A stretch of DNA of 62,779 nt, the filler included, from Candidatus Tectimicrobiota bacterium (lineage in GTDB: Bacteria; JACPSX01), in NCBI GenBank assembly GCA_016193065.1. It is 7 parts of 7 records of this genome, joined end to end, with 100 filler letters (N's around TTAATTAATTAA, not from the genome) between each part and the next. Parts side by side here need not be neighbours in the genome. Positions count along the whole stretch, not along the records: positions 30,852 to 43,963 come from JACPSX010000087.1; 6 more parts are not named here. One strand, given 5' to 3'. Positions 27,075 through 57,760 of the stretch are shown piece after piece (the first letter of the stretch is position 1; the number at the start of each line of letters is the position of its first letter). The notes under the pieces were generated by a model. It had not been told where the DNA came from, did no database searches, and was given only the letters and a program-made list of their open reading frames with translations. A program made the position numbers and the translations under genes.

Positions 27075-27174
27075 NNNNNNNNNNNNNNNNNNNNNNNNNN
27101 NNNNNNNNNNNNNNNNNNTTAATTAATTAANNNNNNNNNNNNNNNNNNNNNNNNNNNNNNNNNNNNNNNNNNNN
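27075..27174. other. artificial contig-join linker
   Basis: N44-TTAATTAATTAA-N44, stops in all six frames. Confidence 0.98.
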
Positions 27175-29199: not shown

Positions 29200-30751
29200 T
29201 TACCTTGACACCGAAAAGACCGCCGGACCCCCTTTATGCAGCGCTTGGCGAGTGTCCTGTGAGTCAAGACCTGATTGATCGACCGAACGGCAGCGTCGCC
29301 ACATTTCGCACACTGGCTTTGCTTCCAGCAGACGCGACGACCATCGCAGCATATCCATTCCGTAAAGCCGATTCATCGCAGCCACCGCCCGCTCGATTCC
29401 TTGTCGGTCAGCCGTAGCCTCATAGCGAACCGACCGGCTGAAATCACTAATTGGCCGGTTTCCACCCCCGCCGTACCAGGCTTCGATATCATATTCCAAT
29501 TCGAAGGTGACGGGCTCGAAGGAATGCAGTTGTAACTCGAGCATTGGGAAGATATCGCGCACGGCGCGCGACCATGTTGATACGGCGCCCAACCACGCTA
29601 CCGGTTCAGCTCTCGTCTGCGCTAGCAAGAGCATAAGGTCCGCAGCTTCGCAAAAGTGGTTGACCACCACCTTCGGTACGAAATTGCGCATTACGTTTTC
29701 GCCGAGCTCCCCACTGAGAAGGCGCGCATAATTTTCGTCGGCGGCGATAAAGCGGCGCATGTCCTCAACTGAGTCGAACAGCTGTGTTTCCGCCGCTATA
29801 AAGTCGGCATAGATCGACCCGAGCGGTCCGTCTGAAACCTTAATGGCCTGCCAAAACTGGAGCAGCACGTCGAACCAGTCCACGCCAAGTTCACGACAGA
29901 CCGGACGGAGAAAATCGAATTGGGTCGACGACATAACTAGAAACACGAAGGACACCCCTCGACATTCGATGTAGTCTTCGAAACTCATTGTATTAGTGGC
30001 AACGCAGACCTCGTCAAATTCGAAAACACGCTCTCCGAGATATTCCCCGAATTGCCTCGGCAGCATACGAAATCGCGTTACCATCGCGTGACGCTGGCGG
30101 CTTTCTTTTGAAGCCAGCGCCGTCCCTTTCAGCAACATAGTCGTATACGCTAATGGCTGCTCCACGTGTGACTCCGCTAAACTGCGAAGCCCTGCGATGT
30201 AACTTTCCTTCGTCTCCTCTGGAAGGGGAACAATAATGGCTGCGTTTGTGGTAATACCGTTCCGCTTCATCTGCTCATAGACCTCGCGCACGTTTGACCC
30301 ACCGAGATTCGTGCGCTTTATCGTCTTCAGCGTATCTATGTTCATCGATTGAGGCGAGATCGACATAGAGATCCGGCGGTTCAACTTCTTCGCCACCTCG
30401 ATCAATCGTTGCAGCTGCGACTTTCCGGTGTCTACAATAAATGAGCGAGGCCAATCGAACTCCCGCTGTAGCTCGGCGATAGCCTCCGCGGTCTTGACGT
30501 CGTGCGGGTACATCCCGAAATTCGAATCGGCCAGAGCCAACGGTACGTCAGGAAACTTGGCCATACGTTCTGCAATATACCGCAGTTCTTCTGTAATCCG
30601 ATCAGTACTGAAGCGCGCAATCGTGCTATACCATTCGTCGCCCTGAACACAAAAAGTGCATGCATAAGGGCATCCGCGCGTCGTCTCAAGAAATGGCATG
30701 AAGTCGCCATAAAGGAAGCGATCCATCATCCCGGAGAGGATTGGTGATGGT
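29200..30751 (-). CDS. cobalamin-dependent-type radical SAM protein, 5'-truncated
   Basis: PSPIL.G, ETTRGCPYACTFC, LADSNFG, QS.N..TL..IKR.N, LPEETKES, L.GT.L. Confidence 0.82.
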
Positions 30752-30851
30752 NNNNNNNNNNNNNNNNNNNNNNNNNNNNNNNNNNNNNNNNNNNNTTAAT
30801 TAATTAANNNNNNNNNNNNNNNNNNNNNNNNNNNNNNNNNNNNNNNNNNNN
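30752..30851. other. artificial contig-join linker
   Basis: N44-TTAATTAATTAA-N44. Confidence 0.98.
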
Positions 30852-31271
30852 ATCCACTGTGACTTCCGTGGCCATGGAGTTCGAGATCAGACAGTACTGC
30901 TTGGCTTTTTGCAGAAGCCTCCCGACCGGCTCCTGATCCTCAGGACGGGAGAGCCAGACTTTGGGAGTCAGGTGAATCCGGGTCATCTTGAATTTGCCGT
31001 CAACGAATTCCAAAGTTCCCTCTGCCTGACTTTCAAACCCGATGAGGTTGACCTTGGCCTTTTCGGCCAGATAGAGGAAGGTCGTCATGAAGCAGCCGTT
31101 GGCTGAGGCGACGTAGAGGTCCTCGGGGCTCCAGAACCCCTCGGGTCCACCAAACTCCGGCGGGGTGGCCACCGGCAAGTCCGGCTTTCCTGCGCTGGAG
31201 AGAAGTCCCTTCTTGCCGTCCTGCCAGTAGATTGAGGATTGGTAAACGTGAGTTTTTGCCTGGATGCTCAT
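30852..31271 (-). CDS. OsmC-family protein, 3'-truncated
   Basis: PPEFGG..G.WSPEDL..AS..GCFM, AKQYCLISNS (two conserved Cys). Confidence 0.88.
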
Positions 31272-31407
31272 GTCATCCTCCTGTCGGCTGTCCCCCTCGC
31301 CTGTAGTGAGCCCGTTTCAACCAAAAGGGTGCGCGGGAAGCAATTTCCTTGACTGCAAGGCAAGGGGTTCAGTACAAGAGAGAGGGGGCGGAAAAACGGG
31401 GAACCGG

Positions 31408-33302
31408 ATGAGAGAATTTTTCAAGCCTCGCGCTGTGGCCGTCGTCGGCGCTTCCCGCGTGGAAGGCAAGGTGGGCCACAGCATCCTGCTGAATCTCCTG
31501 CGCGGCGGTTTTCCCGGAGCCATTTATCCCATCAACCCCGGTTCCCCGGACATCCTTGGAGTCAAGGCGTATCCGGACGTCTCTGCAATTCCCGCAGAAA
31601 TTGATCTGGCCGTATTGGTCATTCCCGCACCCCAAATCCTATCGGCTCTGGAAGCCTGCGTGGCCAAGGGGGCCCGGGGGGCCGTCGTCATATCGGCCGG
31701 CTTCAAGGAGATCGGTGGAGAAGGAGCCGCCCTGGAGCGTGAGCTGAAAAAGTGCGCCCGGGAGCTCGGGATTCGAGTCCTGGGACCCAACTGTCTTGGA
31801 GTCATCTCAACTCAGGGGCGCCTGAACGCGAGTTTTTCCCCCGGTATGCCTCCCGAAGGAGGCATCGGTTTTTTTTCTCAATCAGGAGCCCTGGGGACGG
31901 CGATCCTGGATTGGGCCGTGGGGCAGCGGATCGGGCTCTCCAGGTTCTTGAGCCTCGGCAACAAAATGGACCTCTCCGAAGTGGACGCGGTGCGGGCCAT
32001 GGCCGAGGATCCGGACACGAAGGTGATCCTGGGTTATGTGGAGGGAATTGAGCAGGGGCGGGAGTTCATGGCAGCGGCCCTGGCCGCCTCCCGTAAAAAA
32101 CCCCTGATCATGTATAAAGCAGGAACCACCTCGGCGGGAGCCAGAGCGGCCTCCTCCCATACGGGGGCCCTGGTGGGCTCCGACAAGGCGGTGGAGGCGG
32201 CCTTCCGGCAATCCGGGGTTTTTCGAGTATATTCTCTGGAGGACCTCTTTGATCTGGCTCAGGCCTTCAGCTCCCAACCACTCCCCTCGGGGCCCCGCCT
32301 TTTGATCTTGACGAACGCGGGAGGTCCGGGGATCATCGCGGCCGACGCGGTCGAGAAGGCCCGGGTGGAGCTTGCCCGGCTCTCCGACGAAACCGTTGCC
32401 CGCTTGCGTCAGTTTATGCCCCCGACGGCGGCCCTTTATAATCCGGTGGACGTCATCGGAGACGCCCGGGCGGATCGCTATCAGAAGGCGCTGGAAGTGC
32501 TGCTGCCGGACCCCGGGGTGGACGGGGTCCTGGTTCTGTTGACTCCCCAGGCAATGACCGAGATTGACAAGACCGCGCAACTTATCGGGCAGGCGTCTGC
32601 GGCCTCGGGAAAACCGATTCTGACTTCCTTTATGGGGGAGGCCAGCATGGGAGAGGCCCGCGAGATTCTACGGCGCTATCACGTACCGGACTACCCATAT
32701 CCCGAAGAAGCCGTCAAGGCGTTTGAGGCGCTGGCTGTTTACCGGAGCCGGCGGGATTCTCCGAGCGAGCATCCCGTCACGTTTCCCTGCCGCGGGCAGG
32801 AGGCCAGGGAAAGGATCCGGAAGGCTCGAAGGCAAGGCAGAATCAATCTTGGAGAGTCCGAAGCCCGCTTTGTCGCCGAGGCCTTCGGTTTCCGGTTTCC
32901 GCGCAGCGTGGTCGCTCAGACGGCGGATGAAGCTGTCAACGCCGCGGAAGAGACGGGGTATCCCGTGGTGCTCAAGATCGTCTCTCCGGAGATTCTTCAC
33001 AAGACCGACGTGGGTGGGGTGAAAGTCGGCCTGCGTGGCCCGAAAGAGGTCCGTGAAGGGTTCCTGGAAATCACCACCCGCGTGAGACGCCTGTTTCCCG
33101 ACCCTTGCTGCTCGGAGTGCGAGGAGAGAAGCCTGCGGATCTGCAGGCCCTCGTTGAAAGCCTGCAGCGTCTCTCCCAGCTTGCTATGGAACTTCCCGAG
33201 GTTTTGGAGATGGATATCAATCCACTCATTGTCCGGCCGGCCGGAGAAGGTGCCGTGGCCATTGACGTGCGGATGTCGCTCGTCCACGAGGAGGCCCCAT
33301 GA
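31408..33302 (+). pseudogene. acetate--CoA ligase (ADP-forming), fused alpha-beta, with a deletion/frameshift near 33100 (possibly an assembly error)
   Basis: AVVGAS, GPNCLG, SQSGA, SLGNK.D, AASSHTGAL (phospho-His), TNAGGPG, NPVD, KIVSP.I.HKTDVGGV; C-terminal L.GVRG..D..EMDINPL in another frame. Confidence 0.88.
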
Positions 33303-34360
33303 AATCGCTATACATTGGTTCCACGGGAGATTATTCGGGAAAGACCCTGGTCACGATGGGGTTGGCGATGGCTCTGCAGAAACAGGGTTTTAGCGTCGGG
33401 TATCTGAAGCCTCTGGGAAGGCTCCCCATTGTTGTGGAAGGGGAAGCCGTTGACGGCGATGCGGAATTTCTCAAGAAGATCCTGCATCTGACGGATCCTC
33501 TGAGCCTGATCTCTCCTGTTGTCCTCACTCACGAGCTCGTCGTGCAGCACTACAAAGGGGCTCTGCCGGATCTGCTCCCGAAGGTGGTGGCGGCCCATGC
33601 CCAGGTCTCTCGGGACAAGGACCTGGTCCTGATCGGAGGAGCCGGGAATTTCATGGGAGGGACCTTTCTGGATCTGGAGATTACCCGGGTCTGCGAGGCC
33701 CTTGCTTCCCAGGTTCTACTGGTTGATTCTTCCGATCCGCAGCGCGGCTATGACGCGCTCTTTGTGGCGCGGGAGATCCTGGGAGACCGCCTGATCGGCG
33801 TGATCCTCAATCGGGTTTCCTCCTTACTGCATAACATGGTGGAGGAGATGGCGATTCCCTTCCTGACTAAGTCGGGGTTCCGGATCCTGGGTGTTCTCCC
33901 TCACGACCCGCTTCTTGACGCCATCACCGTAGGCCAGCTCCAGGAGCTGTTGGATGGGAAGATCCTGTGCGCCGCGGATCGACTGGATGAGCTGGTTGCC
34001 AACTTCAGCGTCGGGGCCATGGATCTGGACAAGGCCATGAGCTACTTTCGCAAGCTCCCCAACAAGGCCGTCATCACCGGAGCAAACCGTCCCGACCTGC
34101 AGCTTGCCGCTCTGGAGACAGCCACCAAATGCCTCATCCTCACCGGGAATCAATCTCCCAACGAGATCATTATTTCACGGGCCCGGGAGCTGCGGGTTCC
34201 CATCATCGTGGTCCCCTACGATACCTTCACGACGGTGGATCGGGTCGAGCATTTCATGGGCCGGATCCGCATCCGGGAGCAGCAGAAAGTGGAGAAGGCC
34301 CGCCAGCTTCTGGAAGAGCGCCTGGACTACCGCGCTCTCCTGCAGGCGCTGCAACTGTAG
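33299..34360 (+). CDS. phosphotransacetylase-family protein (BioD-like N-domain plus DRTGG domain)
   Basis: YSGKT..GL, GYLKP, VGAM, ITGANRPDLQLAALE, CLILTG; ATGA-coupled to the CoA ligase. Confidence 0.85.
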   Translation: MKSLYIGSTGDYSGKTLVTMGLAMALQKQGFSVGYLKPLGRLPIVVEGEAVDGDAEFLKKILHLTDPLSLISPVVLTHELVVQHYKGALPDLLPKVVAAHAQVSRDKDLVLIGGAGNFMGGTFLDLEITRVCEALASQVLLVDSSDPQRGYDALFVAREILGDRLIGVILNRVSSLLHNMVEEMAIPFLTKSGFRILGVLPHDPLLDAITVGQLQELLDGKILCAADRLDELVANFSVGAMDLDKAMSYFRKLPNKAVITGANRPDLQLAALETATKCLILTGNQSPNEIIISRARELRVPIIVVPYDTFTTVDRVEHFMGRIRIREQQKVEKARQLLEERLDYRALLQALQL

Positions 34361-35562: not shown

Positions 35563-35614
35563 GAAGTCCTGGGGGCGGGCGACTTCCGGTTCTCAGTCAC
35601 AATTGGCGGTAGTC

Positions 35615-36259
35615 ATGGAATACCAGGGTCGGTTGCAGGAAGTCCTGCGTCAGGCCGCAGCTCTCTTTTCCGAGAAAGGGTACCCGTCCGCTTCGATCCG
35701 GGACCTGTCGCGGGTTTCCGGCCGGAGCATGGCGGGCCTTTACTACTATTTCGCGGGGAAGGAGGAACTGCTCTACCGGATCTGCGCTCAAAGCCTCCAG
35801 GAGATTCTCGAGGAGCTCGACCGATCTCTACCCCAAATCGCCCCCCCTCAGGAAAAGCTCCGCTACCTCGTCGCGGTTCACCTGGACTATTTCCTCAACC
35901 ACCGGGACGAGATGCGGGTCCTCTCTCAGGATTCGGAATTTCTCCAGGGAGAGCATAAGGAAAAGCTGGCTGAGCAGCAAAAGGGCTATTACCTGCTCTG
36001 TCAACAGGTGTTGCGAGAGGTTTGGGAAGAAGCCGGAAGCGGCCAGGAGATTTCCCGAGAGGAGCTGCGGCTCTCGACCCTGGCCCTTTTCGGGATGATC
36101 AACTGGGTTTACAAATGGTACGAGCCGGGCAAGGACCTCTCCTCCAGAGATCTTGCGGACTGGATGACGCGGTTCTTTCTGGAAGGGTACCTGGGGAGCC
36201 CAGCAACTTCTCCGTTTCCGGAACAGAGTCTCCGGGGGATCGACAGTCGGATGGAATGA
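35615..36259 (+). CDS. TetR-family regulator (KstR2/PaaR-like C-terminus)
   Basis: AAALFSEKGY..ASIRDL...S.AGLYYYF.GKEELL; GMINWVYKWYEP. Confidence 0.92.
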   Translation: MEYQGRLQEVLRQAAALFSEKGYPSASIRDLSRVSGRSMAGLYYYFAGKEELLYRICAQSLQEILEELDRSLPQIAPPQEKLRYLVAVHLDYFLNHRDEMRVLSQDSEFLQGEHKEKLAEQQKGYYLLCQQVLREVWEEAGSGQEISREELRLSTLALFGMINWVYKWYEPGKDLSSRDLADWMTRFFLEGYLGSPATSPFPEQSLRGIDSRME

Positions 36260-37844: not shown

Positions 37845-38699
37845 ATGCCGCCGGCAATGAGACAAATCTCGATCTACGGAAAGGGAGGGGTAGGAAAATC
37901 CACGGTTGCCAGCAACACCTCGGTCGCCCTGGCGGAAATGGGCCGCCGGGTCATGCAGATGGGATGTTCTCCGAAAGCCGACTCGACCTATCTGTTGTTG
38001 GGTCACATGTGTCACCCCACAGTCCTCGATCAGGTCCGGGCCAAAGGCTATCGCAAACCCGAGTACATCGATGAGTGCCTGCAGATCGGGCACAAGGGGA
38101 TCGTGTGCGCCGAGGCGGGGGGGCCCGAACCTGCTCTGGGCTGCGCGGGGCGCGGGGTTTTGTTGGTCCTGGAACTGCTGCGCAAGTATCGTCTTCCGGA
38201 AAAGCACGAGGTGGATTTCCTGGTCTTCGATGTCATTGCGGACGTGGTCTGCGGCGGGTTTGCCCAGCCCATCCGCAGGGGGTATGCCAAGGAAACCTAT
38301 ATTGTCACCAGCGGGGAGCTCATGGCTCTGTACGCGGCCAACAACATCTGTAATGCGGTGAAGACCATGAACGAGCTCAAGGGGGCCCAGGTTTTCGTGG
38401 GTGGGCTCATCAACAACATGCGCGGGGTTCCCGGAGAGTTGGAGTTGGTGAGGGAGTTCGGGGAGATCATCGGAGTTCCGGTGGTTGCCAACATCCCCCA
38501 TTCCGATCTGATGCAGCGCGCGGAAACCCAGAAAAAGACTCTGGTGGAGAATTTCCCGGATTCCGCAGAGGCCCAGGAATTCCGCAGCTTTGCCCAACAG
38601 ATCCTGGAACCCCGGGGGATTATTCCCCAGCCGCTGGACCCCAAGGACAGTATTTCGGTAATTCGAGACCTCCTACGGAAGTACCAGGTCTTCGATTGA
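37845..38699 (+). CDS. NifH-like nitrogenase-family Fe protein 1
   Basis: YGKGGVGKST, GCSPKADST, EAGGPEP..GCAGRGV, FDVIADVVCGGFAQPIR, SGELMALYAANNI. Confidence 0.93.
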   Translation: MPPAMRQISIYGKGGVGKSTVASNTSVALAEMGRRVMQMGCSPKADSTYLLLGHMCHPTVLDQVRAKGYRKPEYIDECLQIGHKGIVCAEAGGPEPALGCAGRGVLLVLELLRKYRLPEKHEVDFLVFDVIADVVCGGFAQPIRRGYAKETYIVTSGELMALYAANNICNAVKTMNELKGAQVFVGGLINNMRGVPGELELVREFGEIIGVPVVANIPHSDLMQRAETQKKTLVENFPDSAEAQEFRSFAQQILEPRGIIPQPLDPKDSISVIRDLLRKYQVFD

Positions 38700-38713
38700 G
38701 GGAGGTGAACGCC

Positions 38714-39613
38714 ATGATTGAACGATTTGAAGTCCCCAAGGAAGTGCCGCGCAAGATCGCTATTTACGGCAAGGCCGGCATTGGCAAGTCCATTACCTCC
38801 TCTCACATCAGCGCCGCCCTCTCGGAGATGGGGGAGAAGGTGGGTCTCATGCAAGTGGGCTGCGATCCCAAGCGGGATTCCATCGCCCTGCTGTGCGGGG
38901 GGATCATGCCTACAGTCCTGGAAAAGCTGCGCATGATCGAGAGCGACAGCCTGGGCGACGAAGATACGGGACCTGTGGAGCTGACCGACGTGAAACTCGA
39001 CGAGGTGATCTTCTCGGGTTACAACGGCATCGTGTGCTGCGAGGCCGGGGGGCCGAGGCCGGGGATGGGCTGCGCCGGGCGCGGGGTCCTGGTAGCCATC
39101 AACATCCTGGACGAGTTCAAGGTCTACGAGCGCAACAACGTGGGGTTTGCGATCTTTGACGTGCTGGGGGACGTGGTTTGCGGCGGGTTCGCCCAGCCCA
39201 TGCGGGCCGGGCAGGCTCACGAAATCTACATCGTCACTTGCGGCGAGATTCTGGCCCTCTACATCAGCAACGAGATCATGAGAGCGGTGAACCGGATCCG
39301 CAGCGAGGGGGTCAACGTGGGGCTGGCGGGGCTCATTGACAATCAGCGCAACGTCCCCTTCGAGAGGGAAATCGTGGAGGAGTTTGCCCGCCGCACCGGG
39401 GTTCCCGTCATTCTGCACGTGCCCAGGTCCCCCAAGGTCCAGGAGGCCGAGATCATGTGCAAGACCGTGATCGAGGCCTTTCCGGAGTCGGATCAGGCGT
39501 TGGTCTACCGGTCTCTGGCCAGGAAAGTGTATGAGAACCAGTACATTTACGCGCCCGCACCCCTAAACGGGCTCGATGAGGTGGTTGATGTGGTCCGCAC
39601 CTACATCCATTAG
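38714..39613 (+). CDS. NifH-like nitrogenase-family Fe protein 2
   Basis: YGKAGIGKSI, GCDPKRDS, EAGGPRPG.GCAGRGV, FDVLGDVVCGGFAQPMR; GGAGG RBS at 38701. Confidence 0.93.
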   Translation: MIERFEVPKEVPRKIAIYGKAGIGKSITSSHISAALSEMGEKVGLMQVGCDPKRDSIALLCGGIMPTVLEKLRMIESDSLGDEDTGPVELTDVKLDEVIFSGYNGIVCCEAGGPRPGMGCAGRGVLVAINILDEFKVYERNNVGFAIFDVLGDVVCGGFAQPMRAGQAHEIYIVTCGEILALYISNEIMRAVNRIRSEGVNVGLAGLIDNQRNVPFEREIVEEFARRTGVPVILHVPRSPKVQEAEIMCKTVIEAFPESDQALVYRSLARKVYENQYIYAPAPLNGLDEVVDVVRTYIH

Positions 39614-39660: not shown

Positions 39661-41301
39661 ATGAACTGGCCTGTCTGTGACCAAGTCATGCCATGGGATA
39701 AGGTGGATCGCACCCGGGAGCCCTGGGAGATTGCCCGGGACTACCTGGAGATGCGTGCCAAGAAACAGTTTGAGATCGTCACCTTCAGGGATTTGCTGGA
39801 GAAGACGGAAGACACGGCAGCCTCGGACTGGTGGGAAAAAATCGTCCCCGGATACGGCAGCGGGCTCTGGTGCCCCGCTTATTATTCGATCCAGACCTGG
39901 GCCGGGTTGCCCAACTCCGTCGTGGTCTTCCACGGACCGACCCACTGCGTTTCCGCGGCCCGCTTTTTCCAGATCTCCTACGGCGGCGGCGGGGGCGGAA
40001 GCTACTACTGGGGCGGTCCGTTCTGTTTTGTCCCCAGCACGGAGATGAACGAGCGGGACGCGATCCTTGGGGCTCCCGAGAAGCTCAAGAAAGCGATCCT
40101 GGAGATCGATGCAGTGGCCAAGCCGGAGATCATCATCGTGGCGCCGGCCTGCGCCCCCAGCATGATCGGAGAGCCCATGGAGGAGGTCATCGAAGACGTG
40201 CGGGGGCAGATTCAGTCCGAGATCATCTTCGTGGATGCGCCGGGGTTTAAGTGCATTGACGAAGGAGACATGATCCGGTTGGTCACCAGCAAGTACTGCA
40301 CCGACTTAATGGAAGAACCCAAGACCAAGGACAAAGGGGCGGTCAATGCGGTGGGGGATTGGCGCACAAGCGCCTGGGAGGAGCGCTACGGCGTCAAGTG
40401 CAATTTCCCAACGGCCTACGATGAGCTGAACAGGATCCTCAAGAGGATGGGCCTCAAGCTGAAGACGGTTCTGCCGCAGGCCCCGCTGGCGGACATCCGG
40501 CGGGCTCCCGAGGCGGAGTTCAACGTCTGCACCTGCCCCATGTTTGCCTACCCGATCTGCGAGGAGATGAAAGCCAAGTTCGGTGTCCCGTACAGCAACC
40601 ACGTGTACCCCCTGGGGATAGAAGCAACCCGAAACTACATCATGGCCATCGCGGACTTCTTCGGCAAACAAAACGAGGCGGAAGCTCTCCTACGGGAGGA
40701 GTTTGGGAAGCTTCAGCCCTTGTGGGACGAGGCCAGGAGAAAGATCGCCGGCAAGGTGGCCCTCATGGATTCTTCCATCGCCATGACTTCCGTGAACCGG
40801 CAGATGGGTTATGCACGCATGCTCATCGAGTTGGGGATCGAGGACGTGATCTTCTTCAACATCGCCCCCTCGGAAGTTCTGGGCCGCAGGGAAGGGGTCG
40901 AATACTACCTGAGCCAGACGATCAATGGAGTTCCCTACAACCCCAAGTTCCTCTGGTGGCCGGCTCCCCACGCCATCAAGTTAAGTCCTGTGGAGGTCAT
41001 GGAATTCCTGGGCTTGAAGCCGCAAGATGTCCTCTACCTGTACGGAGATCTGGGGTGGTATGCCAAGGCTCCCGACATCGATCCCGCCAACACGGCCCAG
41101 GTGCAATCGGGGATCCACTGGCGCAGGCGCCGCAACGTGTGCTCCCGGTCCATCTTCTTTAGCGGCATCCGGGGGCTCTTGCGGGACATCATCAATGCGG
41201 TGAATACTTCTAGCCGCGGCAGGAACTTCACCCTCTATGGCCGGGTCATCGGGGAGTGGGCCATTGGGGATGGGGCTGCCGGAGCTGCGGAAAGGGGGTG
41301 A
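39661..41301 (+). CDS. nitrogenase component-1 family, alpha (NifD-like) subunit, highly divergent
   Basis: WCPAY..(25)..HGPTHC, STEMNERDAILG..EKL..AI, PACAPSMIG, APGF, AEFNVCTCP, GVPY..PLGIEAT. Confidence 0.88.
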   Translation: MNWPVCDQVMPWDKVDRTREPWEIARDYLEMRAKKQFEIVTFRDLLEKTEDTAASDWWEKIVPGYGSGLWCPAYYSIQTWAGLPNSVVVFHGPTHCVSAARFFQISYGGGGGGSYYWGGPFCFVPSTEMNERDAILGAPEKLKKAILEIDAVAKPEIIIVAPACAPSMIGEPMEEVIEDVRGQIQSEIIFVDAPGFKCIDEGDMIRLVTSKYCTDLMEEPKTKDKGAVNAVGDWRTSAWEERYGVKCNFPTAYDELNRILKRMGLKLKTVLPQAPLADIRRAPEAEFNVCTCPMFAYPICEEMKAKFGVPYSNHVYPLGIEATRNYIMAIADFFGKQNEAEALLREEFGKLQPLWDEARRKIAGKVALMDSSIAMTSVNRQMGYARMLIELGIEDVIFFNIAPSEVLGRREGVEYYLSQTINGVPYNPKFLWWPAPHAIKLSPVEVMEFLGLKPQDVLYLYGDLGWYAKAPDIDPANTAQVQSGIHWRRRRNVCSRSIFFSGIRGLLRDIINAVNTSSRGRNFTLYGRVIGEWAIGDGAAGAAERG

Positions 41302-43963: not shown

Positions 43964-44063
43964 NNNNNNNNNNNNNNNNNNNNNNNNNNNNNNNNNNNNN
44001 NNNNNNNTTAATTAATTAANNNNNNNNNNNNNNNNNNNNNNNNNNNNNNNNNNNNNNNNNNNN
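43964..44063. other. artificial contig-join linker
   Basis: N44-TTAATTAATTAA-N44. Confidence 0.98.
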
Positions 44064-45398
44064 GGTTCGGCGCTCACCGTGAATGTACTCGAGCCCGTAC
44101 CAGAGTCCGGGGACGTTTTTGGGAAACGGCTTGTAAAAGACGTTCGCGTGCCCCGACCACAGGCGATGGTTGGGATCTCCAGTAAATCCCTGCGGGGGGT
44201 TGTCCATTTCGATGCCGCCGGACACGTTCGACTCGATCTGGTCGCTGAAGACGTGCTTGTAGCCGAGCTTGGCACCCCACTGGTCGCTCGGCTCGATGTC
44301 GCCGCTGACGAGGTGTCCGCTCTTGAAGGAGAAGTCCAGATAGTGCCCGAGCCCTTGACCCGCAACCGTTTGCACGAAGGCGGCGTCCTTCCCCCAGGTG
44401 TTGATCCGGGCATTCGCGGTGACCCCCCAGCCATATTCCGTCTGGTTCACTCCGGCCCGATCCACCCGCAGGAAACGGCTCAGCCAGGCGACATCCGCGA
44501 GCCCCCATTTCCCCTTCCAGCGCGCCTTGGCGACCACATCCGGATAGAGGTCGTTCAAGTCACCCGAGCCCGTCGGGGCGTTCCCGATGTCGGTCTCGGG
44601 GTTTTCGAGGGCGAACTGAAGCTCCGTCGCTCCCACCTTTCGGGTATAGCGGATCTGCGGCTGCCGGGCAAAGGTTCCTCCCGCCCCTCCTACCCAGGAG
44701 AGGGTGTCCGCCGCCGTACCCAGGCTGAAGAACGTGCTCCAGGTCTGCCCGAAGAGCAGGGGGCCGGTCTCCACGTAGGCATGACGCAGGCGAGGCGCTT
44801 CGGCGTTCGTAGTGGCCTGGTTTCCTTGTGCTCCCCGAAAGTCAAACTCGAAGAAGCCCTTGACATCGCCCCAGGGGGAGGGGGTCAGGCTGGTGAAGTT
44901 GAGACGGGTGTTCCTGGCGGTCAGGCGCAGGTGTTCCGTGCGGCCTCCACCTCCTTGCGTGTCAGGTAACTTTTTCAACGGGATGTTCGAGGCCGAGAAG
45001 GTGTCGCCCGAGTCCCCGGTAAAATCCAGCTGAGTGTCGAACTGAACGAAGCCGCCGAATTTGATGGCCGTATTGGTCCCCGGCACGACGAAGGAGCCCG
45101 GGATGGGGCCTTTCTTCAGGACGACTTCCTCCTTTTTCTCCGCTTCCAGCTTCTCGACCCTGCGCTGCAGTCTTTCCTTCTCGACTTTCTCGGACTCGAG
45201 CGTCTCGATCCTCTTTTGCAGCGTCCCAAGCTGTTGCTTCAGATCCTGGAGTTCGTCGGCCCGTACAGGCGCTCCTGTAAAGGCCAGGATCCAGAAGGTC
45301 GCCCCGCACAGAGCCGCAACGAGACCGAATCTTGGAATGTGGCTGCGTACCGGCCATCGCGGCTGCTTTGGAAAAAACTCCGTCGTCTGCATAGACAT
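44064..45398 (-). CDS. DcaP-family trimeric outer-membrane porin, 3'-truncated
   Basis: signal peptide plus coiled coil; PGT.T.IKFGGFV, TARNTRL, FFEFDF, RLRHAY, GQTWSTF, RQPQIRY, ALENP. Confidence 0.85.
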
Positions 45399-45667: not shown

Positions 45668-46499
45668 TCACGTTGTTTCGCTCCCTCGCCCCGCGAGCCG
45701 AAAGCCCAGGGGTCCCCCCAGGACCGTTCCCAGGATCGCCCCCGCCGTCCAGACCGCCGCCACGGGGAAGGAAAGCGACAGACACTGGAGATAGATGGCC
45801 GGGGCGATGACCAAGGCGTAGAGGAGCGAGTGCGTCGCCCCGTGGCTTACCCAGCAATCCGGCCGCGGGCGGCCGAACACCGCGCCGCCGACAAGCAGCG
45901 GGCCGACCGTATAGCCGGCGGCCAGGAGCAGGAGCACCAGGGAAACCGAGACGGACCCCGCAGCTGCCTGGACTAGGCGGATGCAGGTCTCCACGACCCG
46001 GGGGATGGAGAGGGGCGCGGCGAGGATCAAGCTAACCCCGACACTCGTCAAAGCCGCCCGGGAAGCCGGCCCGAGCTCGCGGTGGGAGGAGAGCAGGAAG
46101 AGCCCTGTGTACAGGAGGGTCCAGAACGTCCCGAGGATCCCGATCGCCGGAGCTGAAGTCTCTCCCTCGGCGATGCCGAGGACCAGAAGGAGGGAGAGAG
46201 CGGCGGCTCCGGCTCCCAGGAGCACGCGCGAGAAGATCTGCGCTGGCGACAGGTAGGGCCACGCGTGCCTTCCTTCCCGGGCCTGCTCGCTGNNNNNNNN
46301 NNNNNNCGGGGAGTGCGGGGGGGGTCCAGAGGTCGGCGGCCGCGGCAGCCTCCTGAAGGCGGTCCCAGCGCTCCTTGCACACGTTGCACTGCTCCAGATG
46401 GGCCGCGAACCGGGCTCGATCCTCCGTCTCCAGCTCTTCGTAGAGGAAGTCCACCAGGGATGCCTGAACATCGGAGCATTTCACTTGCTGATCATTCAC
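45668..46499 (-). CDS. membrane-anchored zf-HC2 anti-sigma factor (spans a 14-N scaffold gap)
   Basis: C..VQ.SLVDFLY.EL...HLEQCNVC; multi-TM C-terminal part after the gap. Confidence 0.75.
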
Positions 46500-48999: not shown

Positions 49000-49099
49000 N
49001 NNNNNNNNNNNNNNNNNNNNNNNNNNNNNNNNNNNNNNNNNNNTTAATTAATTAANNNNNNNNNNNNNNNNNNNNNNNNNNNNNNNNNNNNNNNNNNNN
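49000..49099. other. artificial contig-join linker
   Basis: N44-TTAATTAATTAA-N44. Confidence 0.98.
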
Positions 49100-52826: not shown

Positions 52827-52926
52827 NNNNNNNNNNNNNNNNNNNNNNNNNNNNNNNNNNNNNNNNNNNNTTAATTAATTAANNNNNNNNNNNNNNNNNN
52901 NNNNNNNNNNNNNNNNNNNNNNNNNN
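52827..52926. other. artificial contig-join linker
   Basis: N44-TTAATTAATTAA-N44. Confidence 0.98.
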
Positions 52927-54524: not shown

Positions 54525-54649
54525 CGCTGTTCTCCCTTTTTTCGTCCGAAAAATACCGCCAGTCTGGCAGCCTACCCGGCTATCGGCCCGCAGCCTATTT
54601 CCGGGCGAGCCGTGCGAAAGCCTCTCCAATCCNNNNNNNNNNNNNNNNN

Positions 54650-57660: not shown

Positions 57661-57760
57661 NNNNNNNNNNNNNNNNNNNNNNNNNNNNNNNNNNNNNNNN
57701 NNNNTTAATTAATTAANNNNNNNNNNNNNNNNNNNNNNNNNNNNNNNNNNNNNNNNNNNN
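57661..57760. other. artificial contig-join linker
   Basis: N44-TTAATTAATTAA-N44. Confidence 0.98.

Follow-up and report, generated by a model that had tools for sequence, protein, structure and literature searches.

Paired Fe-protein paralogues with one degenerate ATP site in a rare nitrogenase-like operon: a candidate asymmetric heterodimer

Results

Two unlike Fe proteins are encoded side by side

We analysed a stretch of 62,779 nucleotides from the genome of a Candidatus Tectimicrobiota bacterium (assembly GCA_016193065.1), made of seven parts of seven records joined end to end and hereafter called the window. It carries a nitrogenase-like operon of five co-directional genes on the plus strand, nifB-H1-H2-D-K, in which two adjacent genes, H1 and H2, each encode a protein of the nitrogenase Fe-protein (NifH) family. 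Our analysis indicates that H1 and H2 are probably two unlike subunits of one Fe protein, which serves as the reductase of a rare nitrogenase-like enzyme. An asymmetric H1:H2 heterodimer had been put forward in a preliminary description of this DNA. The part of that proposal that is well supported is the pairing of one hydrolytic with one impaired site, which is backed by synteny, co-divergence, natural fusions and the presence of the pair as the sole Fe protein of the five carrier genomes searched; the part that lacks support is the idea that the defects of the two proteins complement each other.

Both proteins match PF00142 over its full length (H1 290.5 bits, H2 281.2 bits; gathering cut-off 25) and are 45% identical to each other. 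Their scores lie below the curated cut-offs of the NifH equivalog TIGR01287 (303.7 bits for H1 and 300.5 bits for H2; cut-off 394.35) and of the CfbC model NF033200 (291.6 and 295.8 bits; cut-off 402). The numbering of Azotobacter vinelandii NifH, used throughout, was fixed by HMMER alignment of H2 to the Fe-protein chain 4wzb_E, and the residues of H1 were read from alignments to three other Fe proteins and to H2. H2 has Lys10, Ala11 (for Gly), Lys15, Ser16, Ile17 (for Thr), Asp39, Cys97, Arg100, Asp125, Gly128, Asp129 and Cys132, together with Arg at position 92, Arg42 and Ile45 in switch I, and 12 residues that are extra relative to 4wzb_E, ESDSLGDEDTG among them; the alignment thus agrees with the initial reading of an altered P-loop and an acidic insertion in a protein that keeps Asp39 and Gly128. 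H1 retains Lys10, Lys15, Arg100, Asp129 and both cluster cysteines, Cys97 and Cys132, and carries Ser for Asp39 in its switch I motif (GCSPKADS) and Ala for Gly128 in switch II (DVIADVVCGGF). Alignments and a check of the codons concur on these two substitutions, as first described. The Walker A motif reads GKGGVGKS in H1 and GKAGIGKS in H2, both with Lys10 and the GxxxxGKS pattern, so that the P-loop of H2 still fits Walker A in spite of the Ala that replaces Gly11 next to the signature lysine. Two features of the NifH family, the switch I aspartate (Asp39) and the switch II glycine (Gly128), fail in H1 only. The latter is the gamma-phosphate sensor of DxxG motifs.

The pair is conserved in order and in residues across related loci

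A search of 5.8 billion proteins turned up only 11 close homologues of the catalytic subunit D. An alignment of these was used for scans that yielded 15 loci, three of which are cut at the start of D and are uninformative on the genes upstream. H2 lies immediately 5' of D wherever a related locus has 0.9 kb or more upstream of D (12 of 12), and H1 precedes H2 wherever there is 1.8 kb or more (11 of 11); the order H1-H2-D is shared even by L015, although its D is only 31% identical. A NifB homologue is found 5' of H1 in 10 related loci. Among H1 orthologues, Ser39 is present in 10 of 10 sequences in which the site is covered, Ala128 is present in 11 of 11, and all 12 H2 orthologues have Ala11, Asp39 and Gly128. 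Position 17 of H2 is more variable (Ile in 10 of 12 orthologues, Val in one and Thr in one), and 11 orthologues have a shorter acidic insert, with none in the most distant one, that of L015. The expectation that homologous operons pair a D39S copy with a D39-intact copy is therefore upheld for the 10 of 10 H1 orthologues that span position 39, and the conservation of D39S and G128A in orthologues marks both as lineage traits, not errors. One H2 orthologue (L003, 1432-2313) has Pro for Lys41 in switch I (GCDPPRDS); this assembly is of low coverage and the residue may be an error.

The pair extends well beyond these loci. Searches with H1 and with H2, taking the best 120 matches of each, gave 219 distinct proteins. 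Among the matches listed, 76 of the 219 have Ser or Asn at position 39, and at least 25 of these 76, the window pair included, were matched to an Asp39 protein by equal length of their longest contigs; 24 of the 25 Asp39 mates have Lys or Arg at position 92. A quick IQ-TREE phylogeny of 99 rows resolves an H1 clade of 39 rows and an H2 clade of 35 rows (SH-aLRT 99 each), with all Ser39 rows on one side of a single branch and all mates in the second clade. A FastTree phylogeny of 250 rows, a sample that is skewed to relatives of the window and includes near-duplicates, likewise gives an H1 clade of 90 sequences (support 0.915), an H2 clade of 118 (0.995) and 42 others. We conclude that the H1/H2 pair far exceeds this operon type in both age and breadth.

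Residue counts in the 250-row tree differ between the two clades. Position 39 is Ser (87) or Asn (3) in the H1 clade and Asp in all 118 H2-clade and all 42 other sequences. Position 128 is Ala (51) or Gly (39) in the H1 clade and invariably Gly in the H2 clade (118) and the others (42). Gly11 is universal in the H1 clade (90) and the others (42); of 117 H2-clade sequences, 71 have Ala at this position and 46 have Gly. Lys10 is found in 90 of 90 H1-clade sequences, in 115 H2-clade sequences (Thr in the other 2) and in all 42 others. Position 92 is acidic in 77 of 90 H1-clade sequences (Glu 65, Asp 12) and basic in 104 of 118 H2-clade sequences (Arg 65, Lys 39), and position 94 is Ala in 73 of 90 of the H1 clade. 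Cys97 and Cys132 are invariant in both clades (90/90 and 118/118), and the H1-clade P-loop, Lys15, Ser16, Lys41, Asp43 and Asp125 are conserved. These counts overturn the proposal of complementary ATPase defects: the switches of H2 are canonical in 118 of 118 sequences, and the losses of Asp39 (90/90) and of Gly128 (51/90) both fall in H1. Not being complementary, the defects converge on one composite ATP site and leave the other intact. Ala11 and Ile17 of H2 were considered as ATPase defects and dropped, being present in 71 and 51 of 117 H2-clade sequences, respectively, and neither defines the clade.

H1 and H2 also diverge together. Over 33 pairs their distance matrices are strongly correlated (Mantel r 0.934; none of 2000 permutations as high), and mean distances are 0.417 for H1 and 0.399 for H2, so that H1 diverges no faster than H2. 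We give almost no credence to the explanation that H1 is a decaying duplicate or that its odd codons are sequencing or assembly errors: it draws on nothing beyond the unusual residues themselves, and it is at odds with the recurrence of the same residues in independent assemblies, with the similar divergence of the two genes and with a P-loop, cluster cysteines and Lys10 that are invariant or nearly so.

The H1/H2 system is rare. In the phyla of two carrier genomes, the carriers are the only genomes in which the pair was found (1 of 206 and 1 of 401 genomes), and two other genomes of those phyla have an ordinary NifH or a NifH-D fusion.

One composite ATP site is predicted to be degenerate

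In NifH, Lys10 of one subunit acts on the nucleotide of the other subunit (passages of a review, PMC13474568). Because Lys10 acts in trans, the site built on H1 itself is the one that lacks the catalytic aspartate and often the switch II glycine, and the site built on H2 and completed by Lys10-Gly11 of H1 is canonical. H1 nonetheless looks nucleotide-binding, since Lys15, Ser16, Lys41, Asp43 and Asp125 are conserved. Relatives of the family inform on the missing residue: in ArsA the switch I aspartate anchors the catalytic water (excerpts of PMC12415280), and in ParA-type relatives its replacement by Ala gives ATP-trap mutants that form bound dimers without hydrolysis (excerpts of PMC8684754). 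According to the same excerpts, replacement of the glycine after the signature lysine by valine blocks dimerisation by its bulk in ParA-type proteins. Ala11 of H2 sits at this inter-subunit P-loop contact, where facing alanines might disfavour an H2 homodimer; Ala11 is not universal in the clade.

Natural single-chain proteins join H1 to H2

An exhaustive search of 1.84 billion representative proteins with H1 returned 2209 hits, the best four of which are 571-596 aa long and contain two NifH stretches; with a fifth that follows them, the H1-H2 fusion clusters are P0134-P0137 and P0139. In all five fusions the N-terminal half is of the Ser39 type and its C-terminal counterpart of the H2 type, always in the order H1 then H2, and Ala11 is present in two of the five C-terminal halves. 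In the 99-row tree the N-halves belong to the H1 clade and the C-halves to the H2 clade, and Pfam recognises two PF00142 stretches in P0135, the one fusion scanned. As the two halves of P0134 have an unfused pair (P0046 and P0356) as their sisters, the fusion arose at least twice. The corresponding 90% clusters hold 12, 3, 4, 1 and 21 members, drawn from separate assemblies, and among these members one NCBI record bears the name ArsA-related ATPase. In the ESM Atlas, P0139 led to nothing but ordinary single-domain NifH clusters.

In AlphaFold2 models of two fusions, both halves are placed with confidence (pLDDT 89.2, pTM 0.87; pLDDT 87.9, pTM 0.83) and disorder is confined to a linker of 20-30 residues. 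MAFFT put all single-domain homologues on the C-half, so the N-half of both models derives from a shallow alignment. In a Foldseek search of the PDB with a fusion model only single NifH chains were matched, each spanning one half of it (TMq 0.42-0.45). NifH-NifH fusions engineered head to tail with a 25-residue linker reportedly function (excerpts of PMC13385145), and therefore a head-to-tail chain can fold back into a dimer. In the lineage of P0139, Thr replaces Lys10 in the H2-half, and Asp43 and Ser44 are also gone from the H1-half, as would be expected of a dispensable H1 site; this supports degeneracy of that site. We additionally found one H2-D fusion, P0002 (853 aa), with an H1 orthologue on a contig of equal length; this lone case suggests a position of H2 over D.

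These data bear on an unlikely alternative, in which H1 and H2 form two separate homodimers with divided labour, for example H2 as the catalytic reductase and H1 as an ATP-binding, non-hydrolysing maturase or cluster-insertion factor for D/K. NifH is well known to act separately in electron donation, in P-cluster maturation and in cofactor assembly (see also the introduction of PMC13385145, in part), and the retention of both cluster cysteines and of a nucleotide-binding P-loop in H1 as well as H2 fits two homodimers. Such a division is difficult to square with H1-H2 fusions that arose at least twice and always in the same order, or with strict 1:1 adjacency and matched distance matrices (r 0.934). 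The asymmetry at Lys10, which is invariant in H1 (90/90) and lost from H2 in one lineage, is likewise hard to explain by two homodimers.

Other multidomain NifH proteins were observed alongside the H1-H2 fusions. P0138 (807 aa) and P0140 (1081 aa) consist of two canonical NifH halves with Asp39 in both and represent a different doubled-Fe-protein lineage, whose halves form a group of their own outside the H1 and H2 clades; in P0140 a nitrogenase component 1 domain follows the two NifH halves in the same chain. P0141 (609 aa) looks related to these two and has a disrupted second half. Dozens of long proteins with an N-terminal NifH stretch are present among the 150 best representative hits (about 700-960 aa; for example P0146, P0150, P0228 and P0277), and all four scanned by Pfam are NifH + Oxidored_nitro fusions. 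Fusions of reductase and catalytic subunit thus seem common in other nitrogenase-like groups.

The pair probably serves a single, divergent D/K partner

The NifB of the window scores 505.7 bits against the TIGR01290 nifB model, above its curated NCBIfam cut-off of 343.65. D and K are far more divergent. The best PDB match of D reaches only 60.3 bits, and the NCBIfam equivalog scores (nifD 66.5, cut-off 653.55; nifK 52.5, cut-off 427.3) place the two proteins outside NifDK. D has three P-cluster-type cysteines (71, 96 and 164), a Cys292 that aligns with the cofactor cysteine of AnfD, and an invariant His486. The conserved cysteines of K are 43 and 204, and only Cys43 lies in an HGPxGC motif common to D and to the Fe-nitrogenase AnfK. 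Instead of six P-cluster cysteines, three in D and three in K, we thus count three in D and one in a cluster-type motif in K. These sequences suggest a lopsided inter-subunit cluster, with three cysteines from D and one from K, plus a NifB-made cofactor.

We searched five carrier genomes, among them one complete chromosome, for additional components. No Fe protein was found beyond two full-length PF00142 matches, and no D/K pair beyond two PF00148 matches. As the five genomes hold exactly two of each, H1 and H2 serve no second enzyme.

Features of the window and of related neighbourhoods

The coordinates of the operon and of its key codons are collected in Table 1.

Table 1. Features of the nifB-H1-H2-D-K region, in window coordinates.
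Feature	Coordinates	Strand	Evidence
TetR-family regulator, directly upstream	35603..36259	+	PF00440, PF17932
NifB-like radical SAM enzyme, C-terminal NifX-like domain, 474 aa	36359..37783	+	TIGR01290, PF04055, PF02579
H1, NifH-like, 284 aa, degenerate ATP site (Ser for Asp39, Ala for Gly128, Ala for Gly94)	37845..38699	+	
H1 codon TCT, Ser42, Asp39 position of A. vinelandii NifH, switch I	37968..37970	+	
H1 codon GCG, Ala132, Gly128 position, switch II DxxG	38238..38240	+	
H2, NifH-like, canonical switch I and switch II, 299 aa from likely ATG	38714..39613	+	
H2 codon GCC, Ala21, Gly11 position, invariant glycine after signature lysine	38774..38776	+	
H2 acidic insert ESDSLGDEDTG, within switch I region (residues 39-69)	38939..38971	+	gap columns against A. 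vinelandii chain
D-like catalytic subunit, 546 aa, very divergent	39661..41301	+	PF00148, 170.5 bits
K-like subunit, 458 aa	41308..42684	+	PF00148, 194.7 bits

The bounds of the switch I region follow passages of PMC13474568. H1 ends with the stop codon 38697-38699 and H1 and H2 are separate genes in the window. The reading frame of H2 is also open from a TTG at 38696; its likely start is the ATG at 38714, 14 nt past the H1 stop, which is preceded by the Shine-Dalgarno sequence GGGAGGTG and agrees with the starts of the orthologues. Ribosome-binding sites of the GGAGG type precede H1 (GGAGG, ATG 37845), H2 and D, and that of H2 overlaps the end of H1.

A link between the TetR-family regulator and the operon is suggested by position only, and the gene is not conserved at related loci. 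Farther upstream (29200-34360) the window encodes a radical SAM protein on the minus strand, an ADP-forming acetyl-CoA synthetase-like protein and a DRTGG/AAA_26 protein, none of which is conserved beside the operon in related loci. Runs of N, mostly pairs of 44 bases, occupy 27075-27174, 30752-30851, 43964-44063, 46293-46306, 49000-49099, 52827-52926, 54633-54649 and 57661-57760; several open reading frames (ORFs) are broken, such as a porin-like gene at 44016-45398, and the nifB-H1-H2-D-K genes are free of such runs.

Gene neighbourhoods compared across the loci gave no consistent clue to the substrate. At L005 (13166-21563), K is followed on its 3' side by a Zn alcohol dehydrogenase, an acyl-CoA dehydrogenase, EtfB and EtfA, then by a CCG-domain Fe-S oxidoreductase and a 2-oxoacid:ferredoxin oxidoreductase, with homologous ORFs in the same order at L014. 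At L015 (2-1042) an acyl-CoA dehydrogenase lies immediately before H1. These neighbours may supply electrons or give a hint to the substrate. A MarR-GNAT fusion ORF (identified by Pfam on L001, 6739-8223) precedes NifB in L001 and likewise in L002, L004, L006 and L013. In these five loci NifB is short (270-276 aa), compared with 474 aa and a NifX-like tail in the window.

Discussion

How an unequal Fe protein could work

If H1 and H2 assemble as we propose, each subunit would give Cys97 and Cys132 to one bridging [4Fe-4S] cluster, and each ATP site would be composed of the P-loop and switches of one subunit plus Lys10 of its partner, as in other ATPases of the intradimeric Walker A class. The H2 site, with Asp39, Gly128 and Asp129 of H2 and Lys10-Gly11 of H1, would carry out the hydrolysis that gates electron transfer. 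The H1 site would still bind nucleotide but lacks the switch I aspartate by which the attacking water is held and, in this lineage, the switch II glycine as well; it would hydrolyse slowly or not at all and probably act as a nucleotide latch for dimer closure. More speculatively, the unequal dimer may dock in one fixed orientation on the unequal D/K pair, and it may spend one ATP per electron instead of two.

A quite unlikely variant is a heterodimer in which both ATP sites turn over, at two ATP per electron, and in which the asymmetry sets the docking orientation only. It finds some footing in clade-specific differences outside the catalytic residues, namely positions 92 and 94 and the switch I motif and insert of H2, and in an acceptor site that is lopsided because K has one cluster-motif cysteine against three in D. 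It fits poorly with the replacement of Asp39 in 90 of 90 H1-clade sequences, the equivalent loss giving hydrolysis-deficient traps in relatives (excerpts of PMC12415280 and PMC8684754), and with the further decay of the H1 site in the P0139 lineage.

Several points weigh against a heterodimer with one impaired site. Ser39 could still permit slow hydrolysis. Among the best 120 matches of each search, 51 of the 76 Ser/Asn39 proteins are without a mate, many of the contigs being short. The degree of asymmetry varies, with Ala128 in only 51 of 90 H1-clade and Ala11 in only 71 of 117 H2-clade sequences. The fusions come from relatives that are 41-51% identical to H1 and lie outside this D family, a NifH-dimer-like packing of their halves is uncertain from the models, and two fused chains could conceivably join like with like, H1 to H1 and H2 to H2. 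The H2-D fusion P0002 is a single sequence on a single contig. More generally, we infer the assembly, cluster content and ATP use of the pair from its genes. A prediction of the H1 + H2 complex from paired alignments, run without controls, scored 0.29, with the mark at 0.32, and is evidence in neither direction.

A broader proposal, which we advance tentatively and with more doubt than confidence, is that these systems constitute a hitherto unrecognised branch of nitrogenase-like enzymes with a hard-wired asymmetric Fe protein, encoded by two genes or fused, that would have one hydrolysing site, use one ATP per electron and adopt a fixed, perhaps permanent, orientation on an unequal D/K with a NifB-made cofactor.

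Comparison with known systems

H1 and H2 share fold and family (PF00142) with the homodimeric Fe proteins NifH, AnfH, MarH, BchL and CfbC, their best PDB matches being 8oie_D (H1) and 9fmg_D (H2). They also have in common with these proteins two cysteines per subunit for a bridging [4Fe-4S] cluster, a P-loop with the signature lysine, and neighbours of the D/K type and NifB. Unlike them, H1 and H2 are diverged paralogues that are always paired, and H1 is devoid of the switch I aspartate. Heterodimeric ABC exporters offer an analogy of logic only, in an unrelated fold and function: of their composite sites, one has lost its catalytic residue and still binds ATP, and the other hydrolyses. Nbp35-Cfd1 is a mixed complex of paralogous P-loop ATPases with a bridging [4Fe-4S] cluster and acts as a cytosolic cluster-transfer scaffold, not as an electron donor to nitrogenase.

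ArsA is alike in belonging to the intradimeric Walker A class and in having two unequal homologous halves with one site more active, and it resembles the H1-H2 fusions in joining its halves by a flexible linker. It differs in holding a metalloid at the interface, in having no Fe-S cluster and in keeping both switch I aspartates. ArsA is described as the only known pseudodimeric member of the family (excerpts of PMC12415280, 2025), and the H1-H2 fusions would be a second case: P0134-P0137 and P0139 have two halves in one chain, whereas the window has two genes. The engineered NifH-NifH fusions (excerpts of PMC13385145) likewise place two Fe-protein subunits in one head-to-tail chain; they are man-made and join identical subunits, whereas the natural fusions join diverged paralogues.

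Among nitrogenase-like groups, the methylthio-alkane reductase (Group IV-C, MarBHDK) has one MarH gene where the window has two H genes, and D reaches only 53.7 bits against the Mar chains 9fmg_A and 9d9u_A. Group VI is characterised by genomes without NifB and by the lack of a Cys275-type cofactor ligand (passages of PMC13474568); the window has NifB, and the invariant Cys292 of D aligns with the cofactor cysteine of AnfD. In the available passages of the same review all reductases are homodimers and two H genes go unmentioned, and excerpts of two 2026 papers on methylthio-alkane reductase give a one-H gene set. Full-text literature searches for a heterodimeric, tandem or naturally fused Fe protein found no description, with prior mention possible in the gene-set lists of Groups IV-D and IV-E or in Meheust et al., 2020. 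The mixed Fe protein that H1 and H2 most likely build, with one normal and one crippled ATP site, is a design for which these searches gave no precedent among nitrogenase-type enzymes.

Significance

The enzyme that this pair would serve comes with NifB; its D subunit bears a cofactor-type cysteine, and its K subunit only one cluster-type cysteine. To our knowledge, every described reductase of the nitrogenase type is treated as a homodimer that uses two ATP per electron, and it has long been asked if each of the two hydrolysis events is required, and if the sites act simultaneously or one after the other. With one site intact and the other degenerate, a natural Fe protein of this kind would be a ready-made test of this two-ATP question. 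Its natural single-chain versions are relevant to engineering, where NifH-NifH fusions are built by hand, and an asymmetric Fe protein may offer a template for cheaper ATP-gated electron donors.

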